Origin: Anaerolineae bacterium
Lineage (GTDB): Bacteria; Chloroflexota; Anaerolineae; B4-G1; SLSP01
Reading direction: 5' to 3'
Assembly: GCA_035373625.1 (NCBI GenBank)
Contig: DAOSNS010000002.1
Span: forward strand, 189,301-253,300
DNA: 64,000 nucleotides
The position numbers were made by a program, and so were the translations under genes. This document shows positions 7,723-56,194 of this stretch, in pieces. The notes beneath the pieces are model-generated. The model was not told the DNA's origin. It did no database searches and saw nothing but the letters and a program-made list of their open reading frames with translations. Each line of letters begins with the position of its first letter. Position 1 is the first letter of the stretch.

Positions 7723-9543
<1,821 letters not shown>

Positions 9544-15961: not shown

Positions 15962-15963
15962 AT

Positions 15964-21968: not shown

Positions 21969-23357
21969 GTGATATTTTATGAGGGAATAATGGAAATGGC
22001 AATTAACGTTGAATATATTTTTTTAGCTATATGGTACCTATTGTTCGCCGTCGGGGGAAGTTATTACCTGTACCGTTCTATCATCAGCCCTTTAGGAATT
22101 TTTGGGAGTGTTTATGTTAGTGTTTTTGCGTTACTGGCGATTCCCCTCGTTGATTATCGTCCTATAGGTCCAGAAACTTTTGCGTTGTTACTTCTCATTG
22201 GCTTTGTCTTTTCCGTCAGTTATGTTATTGTCGTCCGCGTCTTCCGTAAACCTCTTAGAAAGTCTGCATTAGCGAAACAAATACGATGGGATTTATCCGC
22301 TTTTCGCACCGTTTTATTGGCCTCGAATGTTTGTTCATCTATAGGAATCTTACTGCAAGTCTATTTCTTTGTACGTTTTTTCGGCGGCTTTGGCAATTAT
22401 TTCAATAATTTGAGTAGTGTCTATGCAATGCGACTATCAGAAGAGATACTTATTTCTTCCTGGATTGCCTATATGGGGAACATAGGATATGCTGCTGTTT
22501 TTGTGGCGGGTCAAACTTTAGCCATAAAAGGCAAACTCCTAAAACAACGCATGGTCTGTTGGTCTATTTTGAATGTCCTTTTATTGGGTATTTTAACTAT
22601 GGGAAGAGCAGCAATTCTTTGGGGTGGGCTATTTTTTGTAATTGGCTATCTAACAATGCTGGTCTCATATCGTGGGAAAGCGGGAGGCAAACTGATCCTG
22701 AAAAACAAACTGGCCATTGTTCTTCTGGGGGGGGGGGTGTTTGCCTTTGTTAATTACCTTCGTCAGGTTCGTGGAAAGGGAGATAACTTTTGGTCTACAA
22801 TTGCACCATTAAGTGCTTACATTAATTTACCTTACATTGGGCGCGATAGTTTTTTTTGGAATACCTTGGTGTCTAATTACGTATACCTTACCGGTCCTAT
22901 ACCGACCCTTGGGTATGTTATGGACCATCCTGACAATGTTGATTGGTTTTTGCGTTTACTCGCGCCCTTTGCTCGTGTTATTGGGAAAGATATTGTTCGC
23001 TATAGTGAGTTCTTAGCTATCCCTTTTGCGTTCAATGCGCGTTCTGCAATCGGTGAGCTGTATCTGGCCTTCGGTTTTTGGGGCACGCTGTTTATCTTTT
23101 TATTCGTGGGGGCTATTTCTGCCTTTTTGTACGAGAAGTTAAAGGCCGGCACTATACATTTTAATCAATTAGTTTTGTTATCCTGGTTGCTGATTTGGCT
23201 CGCATGGTCAGTTTTCTTCAGTTTAACCCGACAAGGATTTTTCTGGATTTCTGCATTTTGGCTCCTGGGATGCAATTTTGCTACAAGCTTGGCGAAGGTG
23301 CGAACTTCAATAAATACCCTTTCTTGTCAAACATTAGTGCAGAAAAATCAGTCTTAA
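21969..23357 (+). CDS. Polytopic membrane protein, putative Wzy-like repeat-unit polymerase
   Basis: 462 aa, about 10-12 TM segments, in a Wzx/GT context. No sharp motif. Assigned by topology and context. Confidence 0.45.
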   Translation: MIFYEGIMEMAINVEYIFLAIWYLLFAVGGSYYLYRSIISPLGIFGSVYVSVFALLAIPLVDYRPIGPETFALLLLIGFVFSVSYVIVVRVFRKPLRKSALAKQIRWDLSAFRTVLLASNVCSSIGILLQVYFFVRFFGGFGNYFNNLSSVYAMRLSEEILISSWIAYMGNIGYAAVFVAGQTLAIKGKLLKQRMVCWSILNVLLLGILTMGRAAILWGGLFFVIGYLTMLVSYRGKAGGKLILKNKLAIVLLGGGVFAFVNYLRQVRGKGDNFWSTIAPLSAYINLPYIGRDSFFWNTLVSNYVYLTGPIPTLGYVMDHPDNVDWFLRLLAPFARVIGKDIVRYSEFLAIPFAFNARSAIGELYLAFGFWGTLFIFLFVGAISAFLYEKLKAGTIHFNQLVLLSWLLIWLAWSVFFSLTRQGFFWISAFWLLGCNFATSLAKVRTSINTLSCQTLVQKNQS

Positions 23358-23388: not shown

Positions 23389-24327
23389 TTGGGAATTTCA
23401 TACGAGATGAGTAGTTTATCTGTAGTAGTTCTAAGTTACAACAGTTTGGAATTACTTAAGCAATGCGTTCTCAACTTGTTGACGCTTACTAATTCCCCTG
23501 AAATTATCCTGGTTGACAATGGTTCGAGTGATGGTAGCGCTGAGTGGATAAAATCACAGACCAACTCGCAACTCTCTTCATATATTCTCGACCATAATCT
23601 GGGGTTTGCTGCTGGATGTAATGTGGGTATTCGGCAGAGTTCTGGTGATTATGTCTTGCTTCTAAATACGGATGCCTTTTTGACTTCAGATTCTTTAAAT
23701 TGCTTGATTCGGTATTTAGAAATTCACCCAAACGTTGGCATTGTGGGGCCACAACTTCTATATGCCGACGGTATGTGGCAAAGAAGCAGTGGGGCGGTTC
23801 CATCTGTCAGATCGGCCATATTGGAGGCATTGGGTATTACATCTTTACATCATTTACTTCTGGCTTGGTCCTGGCCTATTACTCGCAATTGGTGGCGTCC
23901 ACACGAGGTTGGATATGTGGATGGCGCGTGTATGTTGATTCGACGCGCCGTGATTGACGAAATCGGTTTACTAGATGAAAGCTTCTTCTTTTTTGTGGAA
24001 GATGCTGAATTTTGTCACCGGGCGCGGGAACATGGATGGCTGACGCATTATGTTCCCCAAAGCCGGGTGATACATTTGCGCGGCGGGAGTTCCTCCCAAA
24101 AGGACTTTCAGAAATCCGCATTAATGCAGTTAGCTTCAAGGAAACTTTTCATTGAAAGAGTGTATGGGAATAAAAGTTGGAAGAAGCTGACTTTTTGGGG
24201 CGCCCTTAATTATTGGATGCGCTATCACCTTTGCCGAGTCCTGGCAAAAAACTCCGCAAAATGCGAGAAATATCAATTTCTCAATGAGATTTATTGGAAA
24301 GAGTATTTGACCTCCAAAGCAGGATGA
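23389..24327 (+). CDS. Family 2 glycosyltransferase
   Basis: 'VVVLSYNSLELLKQCV...IILVDNGSSDGS' and 'FFFVEDAEFCHRA' (DxD / ED motifs). Confidence 0.8.
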   Translation: MGISYEMSSLSVVVLSYNSLELLKQCVLNLLTLTNSPEIILVDNGSSDGSAEWIKSQTNSQLSSYILDHNLGFAAGCNVGIRQSSGDYVLLLNTDAFLTSDSLNCLIRYLEIHPNVGIVGPQLLYADGMWQRSSGAVPSVRSAILEALGITSLHHLLLAWSWPITRNWWRPHEVGYVDGACMLIRRAVIDEIGLLDESFFFFVEDAEFCHRAREHGWLTHYVPQSRVIHLRGGSSSQKDFQKSALMQLASRKLFIERVYGNKSWKKLTFWGALNYWMRYHLCRVLAKNSAKCEKYQFLNEIYWKEYLTSKAG

Positions 24328-24351: not shown

Positions 24352-25563
24352 ATGACTTCAGAAATTCTATTCCTGGCTTGGGAAAGTCCGTGGCCTGCGT
24401 TTGGCGGCGGCCCGATGCGCATGCTAGGATTGCTCAAAGAGCTCAGTAAAACATACCCGGTGCATCTGATGGTGGTCTCCGCAAAACCGTTGTCTGCAGA
24501 GCAAGAGACCGAGCTTCGAAACTATGCCATTTCAATCACACGTGTTCCTTTGGCCAGTGCTACGTTAAGCGACAAACTGCGCATCGCGGCATCTATGGTT
24601 ACCCGGCGGATGCCCTATCATTGTGCACTGCTTGCCCTTTCTTTCCGCCGCGCGCCTGATAAGTTAAAGGAAATCCATGCCTTTCCAGGTGTGGTTTATG
24701 CTAATTATGGTCATTGGGGAACGTTGGTTCGAGGGCGACAGGCTAGGAATTGGATCCTTGATCAGCAGAACGCGGATGTTGATTTCTGGCGGGTTTATGC
24801 AACACAAGCGACCAGTGTGTGGCTCAAGTTGGTTGCTTTGCTTAACTGGCGGCTGGCGGAGGCGCATTTTCCGCGTATCTATTCCAGTGTAGGGTGCGTT
24901 GTCTCTGTGTGCGAGGCCGACCGGCAATTAACATTGGATTTGGCGCCTCAAGCGCAGGTCGTGGTGATTGAAAATGGCGTGGATTGCGCCTATTACGTTC
25001 CAGACCGCGCGTCGCGTTCCGTCCCACCACGATTGTTGTTCACCGGCACCTCTGCGCCGCGCAATGTGCTGGCGCTGCGCCAGTTTGTGCGCGGCGTGTG
25101 GCCGCTTGTGCAACGAAAGCTGCCGGATACCGAGCTGTTGGTAGCAGGAAATTTCAAGCCAGAAGCACAGGTCGAGTTCAAACAATACAACAATATTCGC
25201 TTTACCGGACGGGTAGACGATATACGTCCATATTTCAACCAAAGTGATGTGTTTATTGCGCCATTTGAGGAAACGCATGGCTCCAAGCTAAAAATTGCTG
25301 AAGCGATGGCGATGGGGATGGCGATTGTCTCAACGCCGGAAGGCGTTCGGGGATTTGCGCTTGTGGATGGGGAATCGGTTTTGATTGCTCACAATAAAGA
25401 AGAGTTTGCTACACAGGTGATAGCTTTGCTGGAAGATCCGGCGCGACAGGCTCGTTTGGGTATGGCGGCACGTGAGATAGCATTGTCTACTATAGATTGG
25501 AAGGTATTGGGGCAGCGTTTGATTGCTATTGTTGAAGCAACGCGAGGTTGTTTCTCGATTTAA
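24352..25563 (+). CDS. Family 4 (GT-B) glycosyltransferase
   Basis: C-terminal 'FIAPFEETHGSKLKIAEAMAMGMAIVST' matches the GT4 E-x7-E region. Confidence 0.75.
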   Translation: MTSEILFLAWESPWPAFGGGPMRMLGLLKELSKTYPVHLMVVSAKPLSAEQETELRNYAISITRVPLASATLSDKLRIAASMVTRRMPYHCALLALSFRRAPDKLKEIHAFPGVVYANYGHWGTLVRGRQARNWILDQQNADVDFWRVYATQATSVWLKLVALLNWRLAEAHFPRIYSSVGCVVSVCEADRQLTLDLAPQAQVVVIENGVDCAYYVPDRASRSVPPRLLFTGTSAPRNVLALRQFVRGVWPLVQRKLPDTELLVAGNFKPEAQVEFKQYNNIRFTGRVDDIRPYFNQSDVFIAPFEETHGSKLKIAEAMAMGMAIVSTPEGVRGFALVDGESVLIAHNKEEFATQVIALLEDPARQARLGMAAREIALSTIDWKVLGQRLIAIVEATRGCFSI

Positions 25564-27845
25564 TGGTGGAGGTAAGCTTGCAGGCTCTCTATAATGCGGG
25601 GATTGTGGTTACCGGGTTTCTATGGGGATTGTTGGCTACTTCGCAAAATCCTATTGCTCTTACGGGTGTCATATCACCGCAGCTCACAATTGCCGGTGGT
25701 CAAACGATAGTTGCCAGCCCTTTAGTTACTGTCACCATTGATCCCGGGGATTTTACGCCTGTTGAGATGGCCTTTAGTCATGATGAGAGTCCCTTTTCCT
25801 CTTGGGAACCCTTTCAGTCAGCCCGAATTTGGCCCATGAGTGATCCGGAAACCGCGTATCAGGCCTATTTGATGACTCTGAACGAAGGCAGAGCGTTTTG
25901 TGATTGGGATAACGAATTTGGCTCGTTGGCTTGGGGTGAAAGTTATATCCTAGATAGTCTGCTTGATATGTATGAAGTGACCAAAAAGACCATCTATCTG
26001 CAAAAATTTAGCGAGCATGCCGATGCGGTTATTTCCCAAGGGGACGACAACGCAAACCGTCCCGACTATCGAGGTTTGTTATTGCCGGGTTGGAGCGCTT
26101 CCAGCTATTTAACGTTAGCCGACACTATGTACAGAGACACATCAGGACAACCGGGTCTCCTTGTAAGTGGACGCTCGAGTTTGCGGCAAAATCAAGTATC
26201 GGTGCGATTGACAGAAACGACTACAATAACCGGCACGTTGTGGCAATTGGACGTGCATCGCAGTTTGGCTGGGCGTGCCGGAATTGTGTTTTCCGATACG
26301 ACGCTACTTTTAAATGAGCCAAATTGGAATTTCAAAACCTGGCCTAGTGCCTTCAATCCTGGGGATGCTGTAGTTTATGATATTTATTATCCCTGGTTTT
26401 ATGTTTCCGAAATTCGTTTATATGGTGTTAATGGAAATGACGTGCAAGCCAATGACTTTGAACTTTATGTGGCTATGTACGACGCTCAGGGAGAATATAC
26501 CTCCATCGTGACATTTACTTTGCAGACTTTGGTTGATTACGGGCAATCCGTTATCGCGTTTCGTGACTTTAGACAGCAAGGACGCTATTGGAAAGTGCGT
26601 TACGTAGGAGATGCGCCGTTACAGCTTGCTCCAGAATCAGGCGTGTTGATACGATTGTATGAAGACCCCTCACCGCCGCGTTCAGAACGGTTTAACGCGC
26701 CTGATTGGGAAGTTTTGGCGGCCCAGGTCGGGCGAAATTCTGCATTGGTAAAACTGCAAAGCATCGGAATGCAGCGTTCGTTGGATTTGACTGGGGATTG
26801 GCAGTTTTTGACCCCGCAACGTTATCGTATGGCTTTACACACAGGGATGATAGCTTTTCCTCTGTTGCGTTTCGCGCTTCTGATAGAGAATGAAAACCTT
26901 GCCGAATGGCGGATCAAAGCGCAATCGTATTTGGAGTATGCTCGCTCCGCCGTTAATAGCCATCAAGATGAATGGCGGAGTATTTCGACGACTAGAGGAT
27001 TTTATGTTTTTCGGGAAGATGCGCCGGTATGGGCTAATGGCGTGAACTTGCCATTCAATCAACAAGCAGTGATGGGAAAAAGTCTATTGCTATTATATGA
27101 CCTAACGGGTGAGGAAACCTATCGCATTCAGGCTATGCAAATAGCTCAAGTTTTACGAGATGGTATGATTTATGATATTGAGACAGACTCCTATAAGTGG
27201 CACTACTGGTTTGGAGAAGGGTACGATGGTTGGAAAAATGTCGAAGGACGGTTTATACCGACTTACGGGGGATACAAAAGCGCTGAAAGTATCACCTACG
27301 CCTCTATAGATATTGATTTCGTGTTGCTTGCTCATCGCCATGGGATAGTTTTCTCTGTTTATGATATTGTTCGCCTGTCCAATACTTTTCTGCGCCATCT
27401 GACGACTGCTGATGGGCGATTGTGCTTTAGGGTGGACGATCAAGTTATAGAGGGAAGTTGTAGTAATTATTATGTCGATAATCCATTGAAGGTCACCGAG
27501 TACCTTGGGTTAACCGAAGTGGTTCCTGCCGTTTACCAGCGTATGGAGATGGTCCGACCTTTCTCTACCGCCCTCGGTAGTGTGGGTAGCGGTCGTAAAC
27601 CCTATTTCCTGTCGCAAACCCTTTACCATGCCCAATGGCGTTTAACGCCTCGGTCAGGGCAGCATAAAATTTGCGTGCAATTGCAAGATGCGCAGGGATT
27701 CATAAGTGGGCCGTGGTGTGATGAAGTTGTTTTGACGATTACGCCCAATGGTTGTCCATTGTTCAGGTCTTTAACGAGTGCTCTGGGGTGTGGTGAAATC
27801 ACGTTCAATTTGTACCAGTATTATCTGCCCATTATTGTGCGTTAA
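25563..27845 (+). CDS. Large hypothetical protein (about 760 aa) in the glycan cassette; function unknown, possibly a glycan-modifying or degrading enzyme
   Basis: Long uninterrupted ORF with AT-rich codon usage matching its neighbours. Start overlaps the upstream stop (TAATG). No motif recognised. Confidence 0.35.
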   Translation: MVEVSLQALYNAGIVVTGFLWGLLATSQNPIALTGVISPQLTIAGGQTIVASPLVTVTIDPGDFTPVEMAFSHDESPFSSWEPFQSARIWPMSDPETAYQAYLMTLNEGRAFCDWDNEFGSLAWGESYILDSLLDMYEVTKKTIYLQKFSEHADAVISQGDDNANRPDYRGLLLPGWSASSYLTLADTMYRDTSGQPGLLVSGRSSLRQNQVSVRLTETTTITGTLWQLDVHRSLAGRAGIVFSDTTLLLNEPNWNFKTWPSAFNPGDAVVYDIYYPWFYVSEIRLYGVNGNDVQANDFELYVAMYDAQGEYTSIVTFTLQTLVDYGQSVIAFRDFRQQGRYWKVRYVGDAPLQLAPESGVLIRLYEDPSPPRSERFNAPDWEVLAAQVGRNSALVKLQSIGMQRSLDLTGDWQFLTPQRYRMALHTGMIAFPLLRFALLIENENLAEWRIKAQSYLEYARSAVNSHQDEWRSISTTRGFYVFREDAPVWANGVNLPFNQQAVMGKSLLLLYDLTGEETYRIQAMQIAQVLRDGMIYDIETDSYKWHYWFGEGYDGWKNVEGRFIPTYGGYKSAESITYASIDIDFVLLAHRHGIVFSVYDIVRLSNTFLRHLTTADGRLCFRVDDQVIEGSCSNYYVDNPLKVTEYLGLTEVVPAVYQRMEMVRPFSTALGSVGSGRKPYFLSQTLYHAQWRLTPRSGQHKICVQLQDAQGFISGPWCDEVVLTITPNGCPLFRSLTSALGCGEITFNLYQYYLPIIVR

Positions 27846-27948: not shown

Positions 27949-29178
27949 ATGCAGATTCTCTATTTGCATCAATACTTTAATACCCCCCAAGACTCCGGCG
28001 GCACCCGCTCCTACGAAATGGCGCGGCGATTGGTGGCGTATGGCCATCATGTGGACATGATTACGTCGCAGCGTGCCATCCAAGATGACGCAGGACATGG
28101 CTGGCTGGAAACTGAGGAAAGCGGCATCCACGTACATTGGCTGCCTGTGCCATACTCCAATGAAATGTCCTACTCGCAAAGGATTGGCGCGTTCTTCAAA
28201 TTTGCCATTGGCGCGGCGCGTAAAGCAGCTTCCCTGAAAGCCGATGTCGTGTTTGCCACCAGCACGCCACTGACCATCGCATTACCCGGCATCTATGCCG
28301 CGCGCCGGCAAAGGATTCCGTTTGTCTTCGAAGTGCGCGACCTGTGGCCGGAACTCCCGATTGCCGTGGGGGCGCTGCGCAATCCGGTGCTCAAGTGGGC
28401 AGCGCGTTGGTTGGAATGGATGGCCTATCACGCTTCCGCACACATCGTCGCGCTCTCGCCGGGAATGGCCGAGGGGGTGATGCGGCGCGGCATCCCGGCT
28501 TCGCGCGTGACCGTGATTCCCAACAGTTGTGATGTGGCAATGTTTGACGTTCCTCAAGATCGCGGGAAAACTATACGTCAAAAGTTAGGACTTGCGTCGG
28601 AGCAGCCTTTGATTGTGTATACCGGCACCTTCGGTCTGATCAACGGCGTGGGGTATCTGGTCAGAGTTGCTGCAGTGATGCGGACTATCGCGCCGGATGT
28701 TCGTTTCTTGCTGGTTGGCAGTGGGGCGGAACTGGAAAAAGTCACGCAGCAGGCGCACGACCTGGGTGTTTTAGGTAAGAACCTGTGGATTTGGTCCTCT
28801 CTTCCTAAAATTGAAATACCCGATGTGCTGGCCGCGGCGACTATAGCCACCTCGGTGTTTGTGCCTCTAAAGCCGATGTGGAATAACTCCGCTAACAAAT
28901 TCTTCGACGCGTTGGCTGCGCGCAAACCGATCGCCATTAACTACGGCGGTTGGCAAGCTGACCTGTTGCAAGAAACCGGAGCGGGAATCGTGTTGCCGCC
29001 GGATGATATTGACCAGGCTGCGCGGTTGCTGGCTGATTTCGCACGCGATACAGCGCATCTGCATAAAGCCTCTCTCGCCGCGCGGGAATTGGCCTACACC
29101 CGCTTCGCGCGCGACACGCTGGCTTCACAACTGGAAGCCGTGCTGCGCAGTGTGGTGGATCGAGCCAGGAGTACATAA
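27949..29178 (+). CDS. GT4 glycosyltransferase, WbuB-like
   Basis: 'MQILYLHQYFNTPQDSGGTRSYEMARRLVAYGHHVDMIT' is the characteristic WbuB-type N-terminus. Confidence 0.75.
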   Translation: MQILYLHQYFNTPQDSGGTRSYEMARRLVAYGHHVDMITSQRAIQDDAGHGWLETEESGIHVHWLPVPYSNEMSYSQRIGAFFKFAIGAARKAASLKADVVFATSTPLTIALPGIYAARRQRIPFVFEVRDLWPELPIAVGALRNPVLKWAARWLEWMAYHASAHIVALSPGMAEGVMRRGIPASRVTVIPNSCDVAMFDVPQDRGKTIRQKLGLASEQPLIVYTGTFGLINGVGYLVRVAAVMRTIAPDVRFLLVGSGAELEKVTQQAHDLGVLGKNLWIWSSLPKIEIPDVLAAATIATSVFVPLKPMWNNSANKFFDALAARKPIAINYGGWQADLLQETGAGIVLPPDDIDQAARLLADFARDTAHLHKASLAARELAYTRFARDTLASQLEAVLRSVVDRARST

Positions 29179-29795
29179 TGTATCGTCGTTGGGTTAAACG
29201 ATTCTTTGATCTGGGAATAGCGCTTCCGGCTTTATTGCTGCTCTCCCCAATCATGATCGGAATCGCTATTCTGGTGCGCCTCAAACTCGGTGCCCCTGTC
29301 CTCTTCCGCCAGCAGCGCCCCGGCCTGCACGGCAAGCCTTTCACACTCTACAAGTTCCGCACCATGACCGATGCCCGCGACGCCGAAGGGAATTTGCTGC
29401 CCGACGCCGATCGCTTGACCCCCTTTGGCCGCTTCCTGCGCTCCACCAGCCTCGATGAGCTGCCGGAACTCTTCAATGTGCTCAAAGGTGACATGAGCCT
29501 GGTGGGACCGAGGCCATTGTTGATGGAGTATCTCCCCTTATATTCACCAGAACAGATGCGCCGCCACGAAGTTAAGCCGGGGATTACGGGGTGGGCGCAG
29601 ATCAATGGCCGCAATGCCTTGACGTGGGAAGAAAAATTTGCACTGGATATCTGGTATGTAGAACATTACAATTGGTGGATGGATCTAAAAATCTTGTGGT
29701 GTACTTTGCTTAAAGTCGTGGCCCGTGAAGGCATCAACGCAGATGGACACATAACTATGCCTAAATTTACTGGGACGGCAAACGCGATAAAATGA
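29178..29795 (+). CDS. Bacterial sugar transferase, the initiating phosphoglycosyltransferase (PglC/WbaP-C-terminal-domain-like)
   Basis: 205 aa. 'RFFDLGIALPALLLLSPIMIGIAILVRL...PVLFRQQRPGLHGKPFTLYKFRTM...DELPQLFNVLKGDMSLVGPRP' is the canonical Bac_transf motif set. Confidence 0.85.
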   Translation: MYRRWVKRFFDLGIALPALLLLSPIMIGIAILVRLKLGAPVLFRQQRPGLHGKPFTLYKFRTMTDARDAEGNLLPDADRLTPFGRFLRSTSLDELPELFNVLKGDMSLVGPRPLLMEYLPLYSPEQMRRHEVKPGITGWAQINGRNALTWEEKFALDIWYVEHYNWWMDLKILWCTLLKVVAREGINADGHITMPKFTGTANAIK

Positions 29796-30409
29796 CGATT
29801 AGAGTACCGGTTCATGTTCTCGGTGGTGGTGGGCATGCGAAGGTAGTGATTAGCACGCTCCTCGCGGCAGGTTTTGAGATCGCTGCAGTTTACGATGATG
29901 CTGCGGCTAAATGGGGGCAGATGTGTCTGGGTTTTCGCATCTGTGGGCCGTTCTCGACACTGCCTACCGCTGCCCCTATTGCGGCGGTGGCTGCTGTGGG
30001 CGATAATCGTACCCGTCAAGCCATTGTGGAACAATTCAAAAATATACAGTGGGTTACGGTGATACATCCACGCGCTTGGGTACATTCTTCGGTGATCATA
30101 GGAGGAGGGACTGTGGTGTTTGCTGGTGCAGTGATTCAACCCGAAACATACATTGGAGAACATTGTATTATCAACACCGGTGCAACGGTAGACCATGAAT
30201 GTCGGATCGGTGATTATGTTCACGTTGCACCTGGTGTACATCTTGCCGGAAATGTGAACGTTCATAATGGGGCCTTATTAGGAATTGGCAGTGTTGTACT
30301 TCCTGGCGTAGATGTTGGTGATTGGACGACTGTTGGGGCAGGGGGAGTTGTTATTCATGATTTGCCGGGTCATAGTAAAGCGATAGGTGTCCCGGCCAAA
30401 GTTAAGTAA
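29792..30409 (+). CDS. Hexapeptide-repeat sugar N-acetyltransferase (PglD/NeuD-like)
   Basis: 205 aa. 'VHVLGGGGHAKVV' Rossmann-like N-terminus plus a left-handed beta-helix repeat region ('IGDYVHVAPGVHLAGNVNV'). Confidence 0.75.
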   Translation: MTIRVPVHVLGGGGHAKVVISTLLAAGFEIAAVYDDAAAKWGQMCLGFRICGPFSTLPTAAPIAAVAAVGDNRTRQAIVEQFKNIQWVTVIHPRAWVHSSVIIGGGTVVFAGAVIQPETYIGEHCIINTGATVDHECRIGDYVHVAPGVHLAGNVNVHNGALLGIGSVVLPGVDVGDWTTVGAGGVVIHDLPGHSKAIGVPAKVK

Positions 30410-30420
30410 GGAGTAATGGC

Positions 30421-31530
30421 ATGAATAAAACTATGATACCTATGTCCTTGCCCGAGATCAACGACGCCGACGTGCAAGCTGTGGTCGAAGTGGTACGTTC
30501 CGGCCGCCTGGCTCTCGGCCCGCAGGCGGTGGAATTCGAGCGGCTGGTCGCGGAGTACATCGGCGTCAAGCACGCGCTGGCGGTCAGTTCCGGGACGGCG
30601 GCGCTACACCTGCTGGTGCGCGCGCTGGGCCTGGGGCCGGGCGACGAAGTGCTTGTCCCCTCGTTCACGTTTGCTGCCAGCGTCAACGCGATCTTATACG
30701 AGGGCGCGACGCCGGTGTTTGTAGATATAGAGCCGGATACCTATAACCTCGACCCTCAGGACGTGGCGCGGAAAGTGACCTCACGCACCAAAGCCATCAT
30801 GGCCGTGGATGTTTTCGGTCATCCGGTGGAGTGGGATGCGATCCTGGAAGTGGCCGGACAGTATGGTTTGCGTGTGATTGACGATTCCTGCGAAGCATTG
30901 GGGGCAGAGTACAGGGGGCGCAAGCTCGGCAGTTTTGGGGATGGGGCGGCCTTCGCCTTCTACCCCAACAAGCAGATGACGGTGGGCGAGGGGGGCATCA
31001 TCGTCACGGACAACGACGAGATCGCCCGCCTGTGCCGCAGTATGCGCAATCAGGGCCGCCCGGAGATGGGCGCGTGGCTCGAACACGAACGCCTGGGCTA
31101 CAATTATCGCCTGGACGAAATGTCGGCGGCGCTGGGCGTCAGCCAGTTCAAGCGGCTGGAAACCTTCCTGGCCAAGCGGGAAAAGGTCGCGCAGATGTAC
31201 ACCCAACGGCTGCAAGCGCTGGATTGGGTGCGCCCGCCAGCGGTCAGGCCATACGTGCGGATGAGCTGGTTCGTCTATGTGGTGACATTAGCCGAAGGGC
31301 TGCGTCGCGATCCGGTCATCCAGAAAATGGAATCTCAGGGCATCCCGGCGCGCGGCTACTTCGCGCCCATCCACACACAACCCTACATCCGCGAGATATT
31401 CGGCGATCTGCAAGGGACTTTACCGGTCACTGAATCTATCGCGGATCGTACGCTGGCTTTGCCTTTTCATAACAATTTAAGTGAAACTGAGATAGAGATC
31501 GTGGTTAAGGCTTTAAAAGACGCCTTATAA
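30421..31530 (+). CDS. DegT/DnrJ/EryC1/StrS-family PLP-dependent sugar aminotransferase (PglE-like)
   Basis: 369 aa. 'SGTAALHLLVRALGLGPGDEVLVPSFTFAAS' and 'AFYPNKQMTVGEGG' PLP-lysine region. Confidence 0.85.
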   Translation: MNKTMIPMSLPEINDADVQAVVEVVRSGRLALGPQAVEFERLVAEYIGVKHALAVSSGTAALHLLVRALGLGPGDEVLVPSFTFAASVNAILYEGATPVFVDIEPDTYNLDPQDVARKVTSRTKAIMAVDVFGHPVEWDAILEVAGQYGLRVIDDSCEALGAEYRGRKLGSFGDGAAFAFYPNKQMTVGEGGIIVTDNDEIARLCRSMRNQGRPEMGAWLEHERLGYNYRLDEMSAALGVSQFKRLETFLAKREKVAQMYTQRLQALDWVRPPAVRPYVRMSWFVYVVTLAEGLRRDPVIQKMESQGIPARGYFAPIHTQPYIREIFGDLQGTLPVTESIADRTLALPFHNNLSETEIEIVVKALKDAL

Positions 31531-31665
31531 AATCACCCCTGGAGAGCCTATATATCACAGAGGCGCACGCAACCATTGCGCCTTTGTGTGTATATGTTAC
31601 AATAATGGCATCCTGGAGATGCATATCGTGTTTTTCCAGGATGGTAGTTATTGAGGGGGATAACC

Positions 31666-33633
31666 ATGAAGACTCAGAATAAAAACCCCGTGGGGTTGCG
31701 GGTACGGTATTTACTTTGGATTGACCTGTTATGTATCATACTTTCGATCGTCTTCAGCTTTGTGATCCGCTACGAAGCCCTCCTTCGGGTATGGCCCTAT
31801 CTTAAACGCAATTGGATCTTGTTTGTCCTGATCCCACTGGTGCGGCTGCCGCTGTACTATGTTTTTCGGCTGTATCGGCGTCTGTGGCGCTATGCCAGTA
31901 TTCAGGAATTCAAGACCATTCTTCTGAGCGGTGCATCGGGATCATTGTTGATTTACCTCGCCAACTTTGGCTTGTTGCCGCTATTGGGAATCCCCTATTG
32001 CCCCTCACGTTCGATTTGGGCGTTGGAGGGTGGGGCGAGCATTGCGTTGTTAGGAGCCACGCGGTTGTTGCTGCGGCTATGGCAGGCGCGAATAACGCCA
32101 CAAGATGCCGCACGGCTTAAGGTGTTGATACAAAACCCACGACGTGTTCTCATCGCTGGGGCCGGTGATGCCGGAGCGATGATACTGCGGGAGGTGCAAA
32201 ATAACCCGAGGATTGGTTTGAATGTAGTGGGTTTTGTGGATGATAATCCTAATAAGTTACACATGCATATCTACGGTATACAGGTGTTGGGGACGCGGGA
32301 TGATATTCCGGCATTGGCCAAGAAAATGCGTATTGACGAAGTGATTATCGCTATGCCCACGGCGCCCGGGAAAGAAATTCGTGCCATCAAAGGGATTTGT
32401 GAAGCGGCCCATGTGTCTTATAAGACAGTTCCCGGCGTTTATGAATTGATTGATGGCAGTGTGAGCGTCAATCAACTGCGCGAAGTACAAATCGAAGACT
32501 TGCTGCGGCGTAATGTCGTGACATTAGGGACAGAGGGTATGGCATATCTGCGCGATGCTGTCGTGATGGTGACAGGTGCGGGCGGTTCGATCGGATCAGA
32601 ACTATGTCGCCAGATTGCAGCACAACGTCCTCGATGTTTGGTTTTGTTGGATCAAGGCGAAAGTGCCGTGTACTATATTGATTTGGAACTGCGGCGTCGT
32701 TTCCCTTCACTGGAGATTGCTCCGGTCATCGCCGATATCCGCGATCCAGCACGCCTGGAGCGGGTGATGGCGCGTTATACTCCTGAGATTATCTTCCATG
32801 CTGCGGCTTACAAACATGTGCCGCTGATGGAACTTAATCCCGAAGAGGCGATTCTGAACAATGTTCAGGGAAGTCGTAACCTACTACAGGTAGCCGAGCG
32901 TTATAATGTCAGGCGTTTTGTGTTGATCTCCACCGATAAAGCTGTACACCCTTCTAACTTTATGGGTGCCAGCAAACGTATCGTTGAATTGTTGGTTCAA
33001 GATGCTGCCAGGCGCAGTGGGCGCAACTTTGTGGCCGTGCGCTTTGGCAATGTATTGGGTAGCGAGGGCAGTGTCGTCCCCCTGTTCAAACAGCAAATTG
33101 CAGCCGGCGGTCCGGTGACTGTGACGCATCCCGATATGACACGTTATTTCATGACGATCCCCGAAGCAGTCCAACTGGTCATCCAGGCTGCGGTTCTGGG
33201 TAAGGGGGGCGAAATCTTTGTTCTGGATATGGGTGAACCGGTGAAAATTGTAGACCTGGCACGTGACTTGATCACCCTTTCGGGCTTGCAGCCGGATAGA
33301 GACATCGAGATTGTATTTACCGGGCTACGTCCCGGCGAAAAACTTGAAGAGTCCTTGTTCAATAAAACTGAATCCTACACCTTGACAGCGCACGAAAAGA
33401 TATTTGTGGTCACAGAAAAAATGCCGATTGAGAGTCAAGCATTGCAATGGGGCGTGCAGAAGCTCATCCGCATGGCGCAGGATGGCGATGTGGAAAACTT
33501 GTGGGCCAGCATTCAGGCGATTGTTCCTGAGTGTCAGCGCCTTCCTGGGGATAAGGGACCACTTATTATACAAGAAAAGATCGCGTCGGTTTGTGGTGGG
33601 GCTGTATCGGCTGCGCTGGAAGCTTCTGCTTAA
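31666..33633 (+). CDS. Membrane-anchored NDP-sugar 4,6-dehydratase (PglF/CapD/WbpM-like)
   Basis: N-terminal TM segments, then two Rossmann regions ('VLIAGAGDAG', 'VMVTGAGGSIGSEL') and 'YKHVPLME'. Start moved to the ATG at 31666, which has a GAGGGGG ribosome-binding site. Confidence 0.85.
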   Translation: MKTQNKNPVGLRVRYLLWIDLLCIILSIVFSFVIRYEALLRVWPYLKRNWILFVLIPLVRLPLYYVFRLYRRLWRYASIQEFKTILLSGASGSLLIYLANFGLLPLLGIPYCPSRSIWALEGGASIALLGATRLLLRLWQARITPQDAARLKVLIQNPRRVLIAGAGDAGAMILREVQNNPRIGLNVVGFVDDNPNKLHMHIYGIQVLGTRDDIPALAKKMRIDEVIIAMPTAPGKEIRAIKGICEAAHVSYKTVPGVYELIDGSVSVNQLREVQIEDLLRRNVVTLGTEGMAYLRDAVVMVTGAGGSIGSELCRQIAAQRPRCLVLLDQGESAVYYIDLELRRRFPSLEIAPVIADIRDPARLERVMARYTPEIIFHAAAYKHVPLMELNPEEAILNNVQGSRNLLQVAERYNVRRFVLISTDKAVHPSNFMGASKRIVELLVQDAARRSGRNFVAVRFGNVLGSEGSVVPLFKQQIAAGGPVTVTHPDMTRYFMTIPEAVQLVIQAAVLGKGGEIFVLDMGEPVKIVDLARDLITLSGLQPDRDIEIVFTGLRPGEKLEESLFNKTESYTLTAHEKIFVVTEKMPIESQALQWGVQKLIRMAQDGDVENLWASIQAIVPECQRLPGDKGPLIIQEKIASVCGGAVSAALEASA

Positions 33634-33653
33634 TTTATGATTCCCAGGTGACT

Positions 33654-34961
33654 ATGTCGGCAAAAAAACCGAGCTATGTGCGACGAGGAGCTGCCTGGAT
33701 TGCCTGTCACGAGATCTGGCTTGTGATCCTGGGTGTTTTGTTAGCATCGGCCTCAATACGGTTTGCGCTGTGGGGATTGGGCCTGTTAGTGGGGATGTGG
33801 CTCATTCGTTGGGTTGGATACGGTCGGCCTACGTTGCAGACGCCAGTGGATTGGCCCGTCGTTATATTGCTCGGTATGGGGGGGATAACCTGGTGGGTCA
33901 CAGCGGACCAGGACGCGACATTCCTTGCGCTCAGCCGCTTGCTGGCCGGTGTATCGTTGATGTATAGCCTGGTCAACTGGGCCACTACACGTACCCGTTT
34001 GCTTTTGATCTTGTGGGGAGGAACGTTGAGCGCGCTGGTGTTGGCGTTGGCAACACCGCTGCTCATCCCCAGGCAGAACTTTACCCCGTTCCTTTCCTGG
34101 TATGCGCGCCTTCCGCACCTGGAAGACCCTCTGAATCCTAATATGGTGGCGGGTGCATTGGTAATGCTGTTGCCTTTTCCGCTAGCGGGCGGTATTTTGC
34201 TGTTAAAATGGAAATTGGCCTCTCTTACTAAACGCAGATTCTCTGTGCCTATGGTAAGGTTTCTACAGCTTTGGCGCATGGTCAGTATACCAACGACATT
34301 GGTATTGTTAGGGGGCTTGTTTTTCACGCAATCGCGGGGTGCCTGGTTGGCAACCGGCGGCGTCGGTTTTATCATCGGTGTGGGATTAACACCACTGTTC
34401 CTGGCGGTGCTGCTATTGCCGATGTTAGGCGGCGGCTGGTTGATATGGCAAGGACGGTTTATGGGCTTCCTGGATGCTTTGGGTTCCGGAGGTGGTATTG
34501 TGGGATGGGCGCAACGAGTAGAGATTTGGAGCCGTGCTCTGTATATTATTCAGGATTTTCCATTTACCGGCGCGGGTGCCAATACCTATTCTCAAGTTGT
34601 GAGTGTGCTTTATCCGCTGTTTTTGGTTCCGCCGACCACCGTTATTCCCCATGCGCACAATCTGTTTTTGCAGGTAGCGATTGACTTAGGGATACCGGGC
34701 CTGATCGCGTTTATAGCTATTGTGTTGAGCGTGTTCTTTTGTGCTGCGCGATGTGTACGTCATTGTGCTGCCGATCCTATCCGACAAGCAGCAGCCTGGG
34801 CAGGAATGGCGAGTTTAACAGCCATGTTGATTCATGGATTGGTAGATGCTACGACGTGGATTGTCGGCTGGGGGGCACCATTGCCCTGGTTGATGTTCGG
34901 GTTAATCCTGGCTACTGCGCTTCACAACGATTCCGATGTTTTAATTGACACACCCGATTAG
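33654..34961 (+). CDS. O-antigen ligase / Wzy_C-family polytopic membrane protein (candidate ligase or O-oligosaccharyltransferase)
   Basis: About 435 aa, around 10 TM segments, and 'HAHNLFLQVAIDLGIPGL', the conserved His-containing periplasmic loop of Wzy_C/WaaL/PglL-type proteins. Confidence 0.6.
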   Translation: MSAKKPSYVRRGAAWIACHEIWLVILGVLLASASIRFALWGLGLLVGMWLIRWVGYGRPTLQTPVDWPVVILLGMGGITWWVTADQDATFLALSRLLAGVSLMYSLVNWATTRTRLLLILWGGTLSALVLALATPLLIPRQNFTPFLSWYARLPHLEDPLNPNMVAGALVMLLPFPLAGGILLLKWKLASLTKRRFSVPMVRFLQLWRMVSIPTTLVLLGGLFFTQSRGAWLATGGVGFIIGVGLTPLFLAVLLLPMLGGGWLIWQGRFMGFLDALGSGGGIVGWAQRVEIWSRALYIIQDFPFTGAGANTYSQVVSVLYPLFLVPPTTVIPHAHNLFLQVAIDLGIPGLIAFIAIVLSVFFCAARCVRHCAADPIRQAAAWAGMASLTAMLIHGLVDATTWIVGWGAPLPWLMFGLILATALHNDSDVLIDTPD

Positions 34962-34984: not shown

Positions 34985-36139
34985 ATGAATAGCAATGACG
35001 ATGGTCTCTCGCCTTATCTGGCTTTGTGGTTGCAGGGTGAATGTCGTGTATCTGAAGGAAACTTGCTCGCATGGCTCCGCGCGCAACGATTGTTGCCGCT
35101 CTTGATGTGGCGCGCGCAACAGCAAGGCTGGGATTTTCCATCAACATTTGTGTGCGCTGCGCGCGAAGCGCAGTATCGTGAGCAGGCGCAGCAAACAGTA
35201 GCCGAAAATCAGTTGCACGTCTTTGGATCCTTAGCACAATCTTTGAATATCCCAGTCGTGCTGGTCAAGGGCGCTGCTGTAGCGCAGGTCTATCCCCAAC
35301 CCTGGATGCGGCCCTATACAGATATAGACCTTCTGGTTTCTGAGGTGCACATAGGGGACTTCCTGGCGGCGTTGGCAACCCTGGGTTATGTCCCGGTAGA
35401 GAAATCGGTAGGGCAGCGTGGTTATCATGTTCCTCCATTGGTTCCACAAGGCGTCGGAGTCAAAGTCGAAGTGCATACTGCGCTGGCGCGCGAGCGTGAG
35501 CGGGTTCGATTCACGTTTGAGGAGTGGTATGATGACCTGCGCCCCTGGAGTGCTGCTCCTGGCCTGTGGATTCCCGATACTACAGATCATGCTCTCTATT
35601 TGATTCACCATGCAATTGTGCATCATGAGCTCATGCTGGGACTGTTACCGATTGCTGACTTGTATTTCTGGACACAGGGTTGGGATATTTACACCTGGCA
35701 GCAGTTGGCATGTAAGGCTTCGACTGCCGGTCTACACCGAGTGGTCGGCTTAGCATTGGCATTGATGGCATGGGCATGGGATATTGACTGGCCGGAAGAT
35801 ATCTGCCAACTCTTTCCCCGCCCGGCTGGCGATGTTCTGAAAATTGCACAGCGCCTCGTGATTGGTGAGGGAGTGCAGAAAATGCCAAATGTATGGCGTG
35901 ACTTAACCGAGCATAACATGCGTGGACTCTTGAAATATTTGAGTCTGGTCGTATTTGGTGATCCCGGTACCCGGCGTGCTCTACCGTGGAAGGCACGCGC
36001 GCGTTTTTATCTTCAACGCCCTTTTCATCTGTTAAATCATCACGCCCCCACGCTCTGGAAATTGCTGTGTGGGGACCGTCAAACGCGAGCTGCCTGGCAG
36101 GCACAACGGCGATTACAAGCATGGATTCAGGATCAGTGA
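34985..36139 (+). CDS. Nucleotidyltransferase-family protein (NTP_transf_5 / 'uncharacterised nucleotidyltransferase' type)
   Basis: 384 aa. 'MRPYTDIDLLVSEVHIGDF' resembles the DxD nucleotidyltransferase core of this family. Family recall from memory. Confidence 0.45.
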   Translation: MNSNDDGLSPYLALWLQGECRVSEGNLLAWLRAQRLLPLLMWRAQQQGWDFPSTFVCAAREAQYREQAQQTVAENQLHVFGSLAQSLNIPVVLVKGAAVAQVYPQPWMRPYTDIDLLVSEVHIGDFLAALATLGYVPVEKSVGQRGYHVPPLVPQGVGVKVEVHTALARERERVRFTFEEWYDDLRPWSAAPGLWIPDTTDHALYLIHHAIVHHELMLGLLPIADLYFWTQGWDIYTWQQLACKASTAGLHRVVGLALALMAWAWDIDWPEDICQLFPRPAGDVLKIAQRLVIGEGVQKMPNVWRDLTEHNMRGLLKYLSLVVFGDPGTRRALPWKARARFYLQRPFHLLNHHAPTLWKLLCGDRQTRAAWQAQRRLQAWIQDQ

Positions 36140-36303: not shown

Positions 36304-36390
36304 ATCTCATAGCTTTATCAATGTCCACAAATGGCTGCAGATGAATAACCTTTGCATCGCACTATCGTACATCAGGAGGATAATTCGGGG

Positions 36391-38484
36391 ATGGAAGAAG
36401 AAATAGATTTGCGGGTTTACCTTGACGTTTTGCTCAAATGGTGGTGGCTGATTGCTGTGGCAGCCGCAGGTTTGGGAGTTATAGCCCTGCTTGTCAGTCT
36501 TGTAATGCCACCGGAATACGAAGCGACCGCCAGTGTTGTTTCACTTAAGAGCCGTGCCGAAATCTCTTTGGGATCGGGGTTTCGCACGATTACAGAAGAC
36601 AACGTCAACTATGGGAACATGGTTGGCTCAACGGCGGTCGTTGAGCGGATGCAGCAACGCTTAAACACGCTGGCCGGAGTGGTCAAGAACGGCGCCATCG
36701 CTCAGGAAGTGGCTCAGCAGTTGAGCGAATACCTCGATGAGGAAGACCGCGATCCTACCCAATTGCTAGGATATGTTGAAGGCCGCGTCTTGGAACTGAA
36801 AGAGGGCGGAACAGGAGGGGGAGGCGGTGACACGATTCAAATTGTGGTTTCCCACAAAGACCCTGTGATCGCGGCACGGATTGCCAATGCCTGGGCCCAA
36901 TCTTATGAGACCTATATTAATAAGATCTACGGCGAAGCATCCCTTTCGCCTTTTATGGACATCCAAACCCAGCTGCAACAGGCTCGCGCCGAGTATGACG
37001 CCGCCCAGGAAGCCTATTTAAAGTTTATCTCCGAGGACGATCGAATCAATGAAATCCAACGCCAGATAGATGAGGAAACCGTTATCATCAATAACCTGCG
37101 CACGGCCCGGCAAACGGCCATCTCTGCCGTTGTGGATAAAGAAGTCCAGGTGCGCCAGGCCTTGATTGACGCTTATCTCAGCGATGCCCAAGCCAATCGC
37201 CTGTTTGCTTTTGAGAAAGGGCAGAATGCTAAACGTGAAATTCTGGGCGCCTTGATTGATTCAGAGATCTCCAATCGTTTGGCCGTGATCCACCGCGACC
37301 GTGACATCCGTGAACAACTGTTTAAGACGGCCATCAGTGCAGAGATTGCCGCGCGGTTGCAGGTCTTTGAGCAAGAACGAGATGCTCTACGTGTGGATCT
37401 GGAAGAAGATTACAACCGCAAGCGGCGCGTAGAGAATTTGATGGAGGAGGCGGAAATGATGCGCGAGCAGCTTATCCGGGGAGGAGAGGCCAGCGCGCGC
37501 AGCAACGGCCTGGCGTTGTTGGCCTTCAAGTCACGGGTGTTTAGCACCGCCGAGGGATTGCCTTTCGATCGTCTGGATTTGCAAGCTGCCTCCATTGATG
37601 CTTTAAACCCTGACCGCAGCGCCGCCGAGCAGATCGCCGATCTGGACGCTTTGATCACAGCCATGCACCAGGAAGTACAGCGTTTGGAAGCTGCGATCCG
37701 GGAAAAATCAACTGCGCGTCTGAACGGTGAAGGGTATCAGTTCCTCGATTTGCTTTCACCCGACTATCTCACACTTTCTCTCACCCAGACTTTAGGGGTA
37801 GATGATGCTCTGGTTGCCTCCGCACTCATTTCTCCCAATCTCAGCGATTTCATTTTGGAACGCTATGCGGATATGTTTCAAGTTGGCTCTCTGGCGTTGA
37901 GTGCGCAACATGTAGCCACGGATACGCAACTCTTTGGGGAGATCGAGAAACTCTACCCTGAGTTGTATACCAAAGATCCCTGGATGGAATTGTCGGATTT
38001 GATTCCTGAAACTCCTGAACTGGTGAGTCTGGCTAATCAGATGGCCGATGACCTCTTGAAAATGAAAGGTCTGGAAAAGCTTTTGACCTCCTCGGCATTG
38101 GATGAACCCTTATCCAAAGAGATCGCCCAACGTGAATTACGGGTGCGTGGTTTGGATGCCGAAGTCTCTCGCCTGGTTCAGGAAAAGAAAGATTTGGAAC
38201 AGAATCGCGATTTGACCTGGCAGGCATACTCGGTTTTGCTTTCCAAGGCCCAAGAAGTGACGATTGCTTCTGCCTCAGAAGGCAGCGAGGTGCGTTTTGC
38301 CTCGCCGGCGCTGCCGCCACGCAAGCCGGCAAGTCCCAAGAAACTGCGGAATACGGCCATCGGCATCGCCGTTGGATTGATGGGCGGGGTAGTCGGGGCG
38401 TTCTTGTTTAATTATCTGGGCCTTGATAGTCACCCCCGCGTTTTCTGGACGCAGATAACCAAACGGAAACCGGTCAGCGCCTGA
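36391..38484 (+). CDS. Polysaccharide co-polymerase / chain-length determinant (Wzz/GumC-like), no kinase domain
   Basis: N-terminal 'IDLRVYLDVLLKWWWLIAVAAAGLGVIALLVSLVMPPEYEATASV' Wzz motif. Long coiled-coil periplasmic region. C-terminal TM ('AIGIAVGLMGGVVGAFLF'). Start at 36391 has an AGGAGG ribosome-binding site. Confidence 0.7.
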   Translation: MEEEIDLRVYLDVLLKWWWLIAVAAAGLGVIALLVSLVMPPEYEATASVVSLKSRAEISLGSGFRTITEDNVNYGNMVGSTAVVERMQQRLNTLAGVVKNGAIAQEVAQQLSEYLDEEDRDPTQLLGYVEGRVLELKEGGTGGGGGDTIQIVVSHKDPVIAARIANAWAQSYETYINKIYGEASLSPFMDIQTQLQQARAEYDAAQEAYLKFISEDDRINEIQRQIDEETVIINNLRTARQTAISAVVDKEVQVRQALIDAYLSDAQANRLFAFEKGQNAKREILGALIDSEISNRLAVIHRDRDIREQLFKTAISAEIAARLQVFEQERDALRVDLEEDYNRKRRVENLMEEAEMMREQLIRGGEASARSNGLALLAFKSRVFSTAEGLPFDRLDLQAASIDALNPDRSAAEQIADLDALITAMHQEVQRLEAAIREKSTARLNGEGYQFLDLLSPDYLTLSLTQTLGVDDALVASALISPNLSDFILERYADMFQVGSLALSAQHVATDTQLFGEIEKLYPELYTKDPWMELSDLIPETPELVSLANQMADDLLKMKGLEKLLTSSALDEPLSKEIAQRELRVRGLDAEVSRLVQEKKDLEQNRDLTWQAYSVLLSKAQEVTIASASEGSEVRFASPALPPRKPASPKKLRNTAIGIAVGLMGGVVGAFLFNYLGLDSHPRVFWTQITKRKPVSA

Positions 38485-56173: not shown

Positions 56174-56194
56174 TTTTCCCTCCTCAAGGGGGAA

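Follow-up and report, generated by a model that had tools for sequence, protein, structure and literature searches.

We found that five genes at 29178-34961 of a 64-kb stretch of DNA from an Anaerolineae bacterium (contig DAOSNS010000002.1; the whole stretch is called the window below) constitute the 3′ portion of a ~23-kb gene cluster at 15829-38484 that runs on one strand (+) and was delimited from the open reading frame (ORF) listing and from Pfam and NCBIfam matches. A preliminary description had presented these five genes as a self-contained glycosylation module. Instead, they belong to a Wzx/Wzy/polysaccharide co-polymerase (PCP) system, and we read the region from 15.8 to 38.5 kb as one Wzx/Wzy-dependent surface heteropolysaccharide locus whose default product is a chain-length-regulated polymer. 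Its priming sugar is well supported as di-N-acetylbacillosamine (diNAcBac) or a very close 2,4-diacetamido-2,4,6-trideoxyhexose. The last of the five genes encodes a membrane glycosyltransferase with a Wzy_C domain, and sequence comparisons suggest that this protein is probably a ligase-like terminal transferase, to which we assign no particular acceptor (protein, lipid or wall).

As had been described, the five ORFs are contiguous on the + strand, and they give very strong family matches. Their order is PglC-D-E-F-like followed by Wzy_C, rather than the F-E-D-C order given at first:

29178..29795, + strand: small monotopic phosphoglycosyltransferase (PGT) of the PglC/EpsL type, 205 amino acids (aa); Bac_transf, E 9e-67
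29792..30409, + strand: left-handed beta-helix 4-amino-sugar N-acetyltransferase of the PglD/PerB/VioB class, 205 aa; PglD_N and Hexapep
30421..31530, + strand: pyridoxal phosphate-dependent sugar 4-aminotransferase of the DegT family, 369 aa; DegT_DnrJ_EryC1 (PF01041), E 9e-123
31651..33633, + strand: membrane-anchored UDP-N-acetylglucosamine 4,6-dehydratase of the PglF/WbpM/EpsC type, 660 aa, with N-terminal transmembrane (TM) helices; CoA_binding_3 and Polysacc_synt_2, E 1e-119
33654..34961, + strand: WaaL-like Wzy_C membrane glycosyltransferase, 435 aa; PF04932, E 1e-18, 67.7 bits against a cutoff of 31.7

The most likely start of the Wzy_C gene is the ATG at 33654, which gives the 435-aa protein and lies 20 nucleotides (nt) past the dehydratase stop, rather than the TTG at 33591. 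The conserved His loop quoted for this protein, HAHNLFLQVAIDLGIPG, was found at aa 333-349 (nt 34650-34700). The genes show signs of translational coupling: a GT4 glycosyltransferase gene overlaps the PGT start by 1 nt, the PGT and acetyltransferase genes overlap by 4 nt, and the remaining gaps measure 11-120 nt.

The best match of the PGT in the PDB was PglC of Campylobacter concisus (8g1n, E 9e-71), with 54% identity over 199 aa in an ungapped alignment. PGTs specific for diNAcBac co-conserve an aromatic box (Y118/Y122/W150/F154/F197), a GxLLP loop at 71-75, an E117-K196 salt bridge, a C-terminal extension, a DE dyad and a PRP motif (Anderson et al., PMC10186338). The window PGT conserves G71xLLP75, D93E94, P111RP113, E117/K196, Y118, Y122, W150, F154 and F197 together with the C-terminal extension; the PGTs of two related loci, L001 and L010, do not carry these features. 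EpsL of Bacillus subtilis, a proven user of UDP-diNAcBac, is 58% identical to the same C. concisus PglC, and a PGT specific for N-acetylfucosamine (FucNAc) is ~41% identical to EpsL (PMC10653937). Since the window PGT keeps every published specificity residue, diNAcBac or a very close sugar is well supported as the substrate.

The dehydratase agrees with this assignment. Its best PDB match was PglF (WlaL; 5bju, E 8e-87), and its sequence reads STDK at aa 427-430 and MxxxK at aa 438-442. Retaining dehydratases of the PglF type carry a TDK catalytic motif and a Met in place of the Tyr of short-chain dehydrogenases/reductases. Our family scans (Pfam, NCBIfam) took in ORFs of at least 150 aa across the 64-kb window, and no other sugar 4,6-dehydratase, including the GDP-mannose and dTDP-glucose types, was found among them. 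The diNAcBac assignment of the preliminary description is thus borne out by a PGT with the full signature and a dehydratase of the PglF type.

The PglE and PglD labels are less certain. Both families were recovered (DegT; PglD_N/Hexapep), and the acetyltransferase scored 208 bits against the 160.8-bit cutoff of TIGR03570 (NeuD/PglB/VioB). The closest solved relatives are not PglE and PglD but enzymes of GDP-perosamine synthesis, and this resemblance counts against our sugar assignment. For the aminotransferase, the Caulobacter perosamine synthetase (6e-82) came ahead of the PglE-type enzyme of Campylobacter jejuni (1o61, 1e-40), and no NCBIfam equivalog cutoff was reached; for the acetyltransferase, PerB (3e-42) preceded the acetyltransferase domain of Neisseria gonorrhoeae PglB (8e-30) and C. 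jejuni PglD (2e-19). These rankings favor a pair that yields another sugar, such as the C4 epimer 2,4-diacetamido-2,4,6-trideoxygalactose, a differently N-acylated 4-amino sugar or N-acetylperosamine. We consider this improbable: the PglF-type enzyme is the only source of a 4-keto sugar among the scanned ORFs, the co-transcribed PGT bears the complete diNAcBac signature, and the gonococcal PglB domain that matches at 8e-30 is a true diNAcBac enzyme. We therefore take the priming sugar to be diNAcBac or a very close 2,4-diacetamido-2,4,6-trideoxyhexose, because the sole dehydratase found is of the PglF type and the pair is translationally coupled to a diNAcBac-type PGT. We infer the identity of the sugar and its C4 configuration; since the pair lies nearer to perosamine enzymes, this configuration and the nucleotide carrier rest on gene context. 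Two other pathways were considered and set aside. Synthesis of N-acetylquinovosamine (QuiNAc) or FucNAc would involve a 4-reductase, which the module lacks, whereas an aminotransferase and an acetyltransferase are present. For legionaminic or pseudaminic acid, no NeuB-like synthase was found here, and a PGT is present.

We then characterized the Wzy_C protein itself. PF04932 was its sole Pfam domain even at E ≤ 10, and the PglL_A motif (PF15864) was not found at the same threshold. The hallmarks of PglL are a PglL_A motif flanking the Wzy_C domain and a gene located beside that of its pilin or other acceptor (PMC3643930). Because the search for PglL_A was negative, we do not place the protein in the PglL family. 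A single-sequence search against the PDB found nothing. An alignment of 52 homologous sequences was used both to build a profile and to obtain an AlphaFold model, which had a predicted confidence (pLDDT) of 92. In a Foldseek search of the PDB, the only significant match of this model was WaaL of Cupriavidus metallidurans (7tpg, E 2e-8, TM-scores 0.52/0.56, 18% identity), followed by RodA and FtsW; the 52-homologue profile reached the same WaaL structure at E 4e-15. R228, R288 and H335 are invariant in the 52 homologues and align to R191, R265 and H313 of the C. metallidurans enzyme. This Arg/Arg/His set comprises the three residues common to WaaL and PglL (R215/R288/H338 in Escherichia coli WaaL; PMC3643930), an equivalence that rests on the profile alignment and on that study. 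Taken together, the modelled fold and these residues establish the predicted chemistry as transfer from a polyprenyl pyrophosphate-linked glycan.

The Wzy_C family occurs throughout Chloroflexota; species-representative genomes hold at least 543 of its loci. A protein identical to the window Wzy_C is on record from an Anaerolineae metagenome-assembled genome. The window protein scored 48.9 bits, in its C-terminal part only, against the 366.4-bit cutoff of the IctB family (TIGR00947), of which it is not a member. It shares with the IctB group an NPN[LM] motif, NPNM at aa 161, which makes the link to IctB a weak lead from sequence and not a membership. Some Chloroflexota hold two Wzy_C-family paralogues, either in tandem (L003, 5816-7096 and 7396-8727) or 23 kb apart on the same contig (L025/L068). 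The second L003 copy weakly matches models for the TfpM O-oligosaccharyltransferase and for an exosortase-associated 'O-glycosylation ligase', far under their cutoffs.

The remainder of the cluster holds the following genes:

15829..17355, + strand: FrhB/FdhB-like (F420H2-dehydrogenase beta-like) protein that opens the low-GC cassette; Pfam FrhB_FdhB_C/N, GC 0.42
17368..18651, + strand: polysaccharide pyruvyl transferase; PF04230, E 2e-22
18672..20204, + strand: candidate Wzx-like flippase, polytopic, with at least 10 TM-like segments by hydropathy; weak match to NF041503 WZX_like, E 1e-7
20173..21924, + strand: membrane-anchored tetratricopeptide repeat (TPR) protein with an N-terminal TM segment, directly 5′ of the polymerase gene; Pfam TPR matches
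21969..23357, + strand: cassette-specific repeat-unit polymerase Wzy of the TIGR04370 family, 59.8 bits against a cutoff of 40; GC 0.41
23389..24327, + strand: GT2 glycosyltransferase; PF00535
24352..25563, + strand: GT1/GT4-type glycosyltransferase; Glyco_trans_1_4
25548..27845, + strand: 765-aa protein inside the cluster, with one TM-like segment and no family assigned
27949..29178, + strand: GT4 glycosyltransferase that overlaps the PGT start; Glyco_trans_4_4 / Glycos_transf_1
34985..36139, + strand: soluble NTP_transf_5 protein whose gene adjoins the Wzy_C gene; PF14907, E 2e-31
36352..38484, + strand: PCP of 710 aa with a Wzz N-terminal domain and GNVR, without a kinase domain; PF02706 and PF13807, TM segments at 33-51 and 668-686

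A Wzx/Wzy pathway set is therefore present in one locus, with PGT, GT2, GT1, GT4, a TIGR04370 Wzy and a Wzz/GNVR protein; the flippase is weakly supported. The TIGR04370 match spans model positions 2-392 of 396, and the protein has 8-11 TM-like segments, a number that varies with the hydropathy threshold; we found no relation between it and the Wzy_C profile. FrhB/FdhB-like proteins are the usual partners of polysaccharide pyruvyl transferases, and the pyruvyl transferase itself matched the CsaB and WcaK models weakly, below their cutoffs. The GT4 enzyme next to the PGT could be a candidate for transfer of the second sugar. For the 765-aa protein there was no match in Pfam or NCBIfam, and a literature search on PF14907 yielded no functional lead. 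GC content was 0.41-0.44 in the left cassette and 0.50-0.60 in the right part, compared to 0.63-0.68 in the flanking housekeeping genes. The low-GC cassette is bordered on the left by a DDE transposase (15030-15893, −) and a DUF3782/PD-(D/E)XK protein (11809-12564, +), and an rve-type transposase sits within the cassette of a relative (L089, 5689-6540). Transposases at or in the cassettes fit the view of this site as a recombination hot spot for glycan cassettes.

To compare the locus with its counterparts, we used relatives that share the chromosomal site, in which the downstream genes (orf150, HprK-like, PqqD-like, Sua5, sigma-70, histidine kinase, response regulator and DAO) are 73-93% identical. 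Housekeeping identity was similar among the syntenic relatives (Sua5 81-88%, sigma-70 92-93%). Identities below are those of the relatives' proteins to the window proteins:

L001/L088: PglF 85%, Wzy_C 73%, NTP_transf_5 63%; PGT 40%, without the diNAcBac signature
L089/L090: PglF 81%, Wzy_C 68%, NTP_transf_5 present; PGT 44%, the called gene being a 92-aa fragment
L009: PglF 82%, Wzy_C 67%, NTP_transf_5 58%; PGT 77%, with the signature and the diNAcBac module kept
L016: PglF absent, Wzy_C 41%, NTP_transf_5 present; large PGT (41%), whole cassette replaced, WbpB/D/E-like genes, PCP with a kinase domain

L001/L088 and L089/L090 also have a GNAT protein in place of the beta-helix acetyltransferase and carry FnlA-like genes, and the related L010 PGT is 44% identical to that of the window. 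PglF, Wzy_C, NTP_transf_5 and PCP thus form a flank that stays constant across different cassettes. An NTP_transf_5 gene was located next to or near the Wzy_C gene in L001, L003, L007, L008, L009-L013, L016 and L090.

Two loci, L088 and L089, were extended upstream via an upstream gene. Both loci have, besides the flank Wzy_C, a cassette with a Wzx and with a TM-TPR protein coupled to a polytopic Wzy-like protein, a pair particular to each cassette. The Wzy-like protein of L088 is a Wzy_C paralogue with 514 aa and 11 TM segments, and that of L089 has 470 aa and 9 TM segments. The three independent cassettes of the window, L088 and L089 therefore hold polymerase-like genes from three different families, as opposed to one conserved flank Wzy_C. 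This pattern of a variable polymerase-like gene and a conserved Wzy_C gene mirrors the variable wzx/wzy and conserved wzz/waaL genes of O-antigen systems, and it is for this reason that we favor a ligase-like role. It also agrees with the preliminary description in that the Wzy_C protein is not simply the polymerase, as a separate TIGR04370 Wzy is present and Wzy_C orthologues are 68-73% identical across differing cassettes. The TM-TPR gene lies directly 5′ of the polytopic Wzy-like gene in all three cassettes (window, 20173-21924/21969-23357; L088, 2831-4018/3966-5510; L089, 1070-2809/2800-4212); the two genes overlap in the L088 and L089 pairs, and 44 nt separate those of the window. The window TPR protein is 33% identical to the 579-aa L089 TPR protein, and their polytopic partners are unrelated.

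Several observations weigh against a ligase-like role. The match to the WaaL fold cannot tell a ligase from a polymerase, because the PDB copy that was searched holds no solved Wzy_C-type polymerase or PglL. The Wzy_C gene is close to the PCP gene: NTP_transf_5 alone separates the two in L001, L090 and the window, and in L008 and L016 they are direct neighbors. In L016, where the background is otherwise ~88% identical, the Wzy_C gene was exchanged with the whole glycan cassette and its product retains 41% identity. Proximity to the PCP gene and the L016 replacement also fit a polymerase. Pairings of TPR and Wzy_C occur in the S-layer O-oligosaccharyltransferases WsaA/WsaB and WsfB (PMC2943079), so that in L088 and similar loci the transferase could be the cassette pair; in the window, such a reversal of roles is disfavored because the cassette protein is a TIGR04370 member unrelated to Wzy_C. 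No acceptor candidate was found in the window, and we infer the ligase role, the order of steps and the sugar, like enzyme activities and glycan structure, from the genes. The flank Wzy_C might accordingly be the repeat-unit polymerase, or a second one, that works with the nearby Wzz/GNVR PCP to make an exopolysaccharide or capsule that is free or loosely attached, without any ligation by Wzy_C. Many Wzy polymerases do have a Wzy_C domain, and when polytopic proteins were counted up to 10 kb on either side of 45 homologous loci, Wzy_C was the only one in many of them; this range falls short of cassettes 11-15 kb upstream, as in the window. We nevertheless regard a polymerase function as rather unlikely. 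The window already has a TIGR04370 polymerase by the Wzx-like gene in its low-GC cassette, and L088 and L089 each have an additional cassette-specific Wzy-like protein. In addition, the flank Wzy_C does not appear cassette-specific, as its 68-73% identity despite differing PGT, acyltransferase and glycosyltransferase sets is atypical for repeat-unit-specific polymerases, an argument that the co-replacement in L016 keeps less than decisive.

The preliminary description had proposed protein (S-layer or pilin) glycosylation. In its strict form, a general O-glycosylation system of the Neisseria/PglL type would move a short diNAcBac-initiated oligosaccharide onto pilin or S-layer proteins through Wzy_C. 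Priming with diNAcBac and a Wzy_C enzyme with the shared Arg/Arg/His residues are in keeping with this, Chloroflexota include S-layer-bearing monoderms and an O-glycosylated archaellin is found in L. aerophila (PMC12488501), and the S-layer O-oligosaccharyltransferases of Firmicutes bear Wzy_C (PMC2943079). We consider such a system quite improbable, given that PglL_A is absent at E ≤ 10, that a candidate Wzx, a Wzy and a chain-length determinant point to a polymer rather than a short oligosaccharide, and that pilin, S-layer and SLH genes were not found in the window. More broadly, none of the scanned window ORFs was recognized as STT3, LCP, SLH, pilin, S-layer protein or oligosaccharyltransferase acceptor. 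Attachment to protein does survive as one of several possible endpoints, and one such endpoint counted within our explanation is an S-layer glycan that is polymeric, as in Paenibacillus alvei. Overall, the preliminary interpretation was partly supported.

The 64-kb window contained no lpx, waa or lpt genes. Chloroflexota are presumed to lack lipid A. Lipid A-core is presumably not the acceptor, because the phylum includes S-layer monoderms (PMC12488501) and because of this presumed absence. A more far-reaching version of our explanation, which we hold only tentatively, is that Wzy_C, a distantly IctB-like protein found in more than 500 Chloroflexota species genomes, is the terminal glycan ligase so far missing from this phylum. 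It would then be an O-oligosaccharyltransferase of a lineage other than PglL/TfpO/PglS, and it would attach diverse Wzy-polymerized, chain-length-controlled glycans to a lipid anchor or to a protein of the S-layer, the sheath or elsewhere on the surface. NTP_transf_5 and the HprK-like/PqqD-like pair might be its partners in this.

On balance, the ligase-like reading leads to a seven-step explanation of the locus that we judge likely as a whole. The PglF-type dehydratase would convert UDP-N-acetylglucosamine into a 4-keto-6-deoxy sugar, from which the DegT aminotransferase and the PglD-class acetyltransferase would make UDP-diNAcBac or its very close relative. The PglC-type PGT would then place this priming sugar on polyprenyl phosphate, and the GT4, GT1 and GT2 enzymes and the pyruvyl transferase would finish the repeat unit. 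After flipping by the Wzx-like protein, the TIGR04370 Wzy of the cassette would polymerize the units, with chain length set by the Wzz/GNVR co-polymerase. Finally, the flank Wzy_C would move the finished polyprenyl pyrophosphate-linked glycan to an acceptor other than lipid A, which may be a protein of the surface or S-layer, a lipid of the membrane or a component of the wall.

Among known systems, the early steps of B. subtilis eps appear functionally closest, and the overall logic appears closest to O-antigen or S-layer-glycan assembly. We know of no WaaL-like Wzy_C gene and no NTP_transf_5 gene in eps. B. subtilis has no lipopolysaccharide (LPS), as is presumed for Chloroflexota, and its EpsC/EpsN/EpsM and EpsL, which as in the window comprise a membrane-anchored dehydratase of the PglF type, a DegT aminotransferase, a beta-helix acetyltransferase and a small PGT of the PglC type, prime its exopolysaccharide with diNAcBac from a large locus with several glycosyltransferases, a pyruvyl transferase and a flippase; the two differ in that eps has an EpsG-type polymerase, an EpsA/EpsB chain-length/kinase pair and another gene order (PMC10653937). 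The pgl loci of Campylobacter (PglF/E/D/C) and Neisseria (PglD/C/B and PglL) follow the same four-step route to polyprenyl pyrophosphate-linked diNAcBac, and the Neisseria pathway ends with a Wzy_C-family transferase. Unlike these, the window locus has neither PglB/STT3 nor PglL_A, adds a Wzx-like candidate, Wzy and Wzz, and its aminotransferase and acetyltransferase are only distant relatives of PglE and PglD. An N-glycosylation system of the Campylobacter type was rejected because no STT3 was found among the scanned window ORFs.

The Wzx/Wzy/Wzz/WaaL logic of O-antigen synthesis resembles the locus in the fold and aligned Arg/Arg/His residues of the ligase and in a variable low-GC wzx/wzy/glycosyltransferase cassette next to a conserved chain-length regulator and ligase. 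Differences from WaaL are the low identity (18%), the position of the ligase gene inside the glycan locus and an acceptor that is presumably not lipid A-core. The S-layer slg loci of P. alvei and Geobacillus stearothermophilus (WsfB/WsaB; PMC2943079) have monoderm hosts, an O-antigen-like polymer on a lipid carrier, transfer by Wzy_C and a TPR protein or domain. They differ in starting with Gal-1-P transferases and, in G. stearothermophilus, in using an ABC transporter; in the window, no S-layer gene is linked, and the coupling partner of the TPR gene is the cassette polymerase instead of the flank Wzy_C. The cyanobacterial IctB group (TIGR00947; PMC4594306) shares the weak C-terminal match, NPN[LM] and the character of a Wzy_C protein conserved across a phylum without assigned function, but the score is far under the 366-bit cutoff, IctB is not reported in polysaccharide loci and cyanobacteria have LPS.

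These results extend diNAcBac-primed polysaccharide synthesis, biochemically documented so far in Campylobacter, Neisseria, Acinetobacter and Bacillus, to Anaerolineae, which on its own is an incremental step. More useful is the comparison at one chromosomal site, where a low-GC cassette with its own polymerase is swapped and the WaaL-like Wzy_C, NTP_transf_5 and the co-polymerase are kept. It provides a concrete candidate for the enzyme that completes the assembly of surface glycans in a phylum that is presumably devoid of LPS. This enzyme is possibly a transferase of relaxed specificity, which would be of interest for glyco-engineering, with protein glycosylation as only one possible endpoint.

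We also observed that four genes recur beside Wzy_C/PCP: NTP_transf_5 (34985-36139), a small TM/beta-sandwich-like protein (38572-39024), a weakly HprK-related/ScmC-like P-loop protein (38994-39824) and a PqqD-like protein of the peptide-chaperone type (39661-40113). The set is also found in L001, L009, L013, L016, L026 and L090, and in L008 at a distance of 4-6 kb, and it persists where the cassette is replaced. The combination of an HPr-kinase-like protein, a nucleotidyltransferase and PqqD recalls peptide-tailoring cassettes, and its recurrence might indicate that the glycan pathway has a peptide or a protein as its partner.

Neither Rfam families nor tRNA genes were found when the window was scanned for them. 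About 6 kb 5′ of the cluster lie genes for a bifunctional ATP-sulfurylase/adenosine phosphosulfate kinase that makes 3′-phosphoadenosine-5′-phosphosulfate (7741-9543) and for a galactokinase-like GHMP kinase (9550-10746). The two could point to sugars that are sulfated or supplied by salvage; the cluster itself had no recognizable sulfotransferase. At the other end of the window, 54566-58759 (−) encodes an 854-aa protein with an Effector-associated domain 7 (EAD7) beside a 535-aa SPFH/Band-7 protein and a UvrD-type helicase, which may form a defence-related or signalling module separate from the glycan locus.

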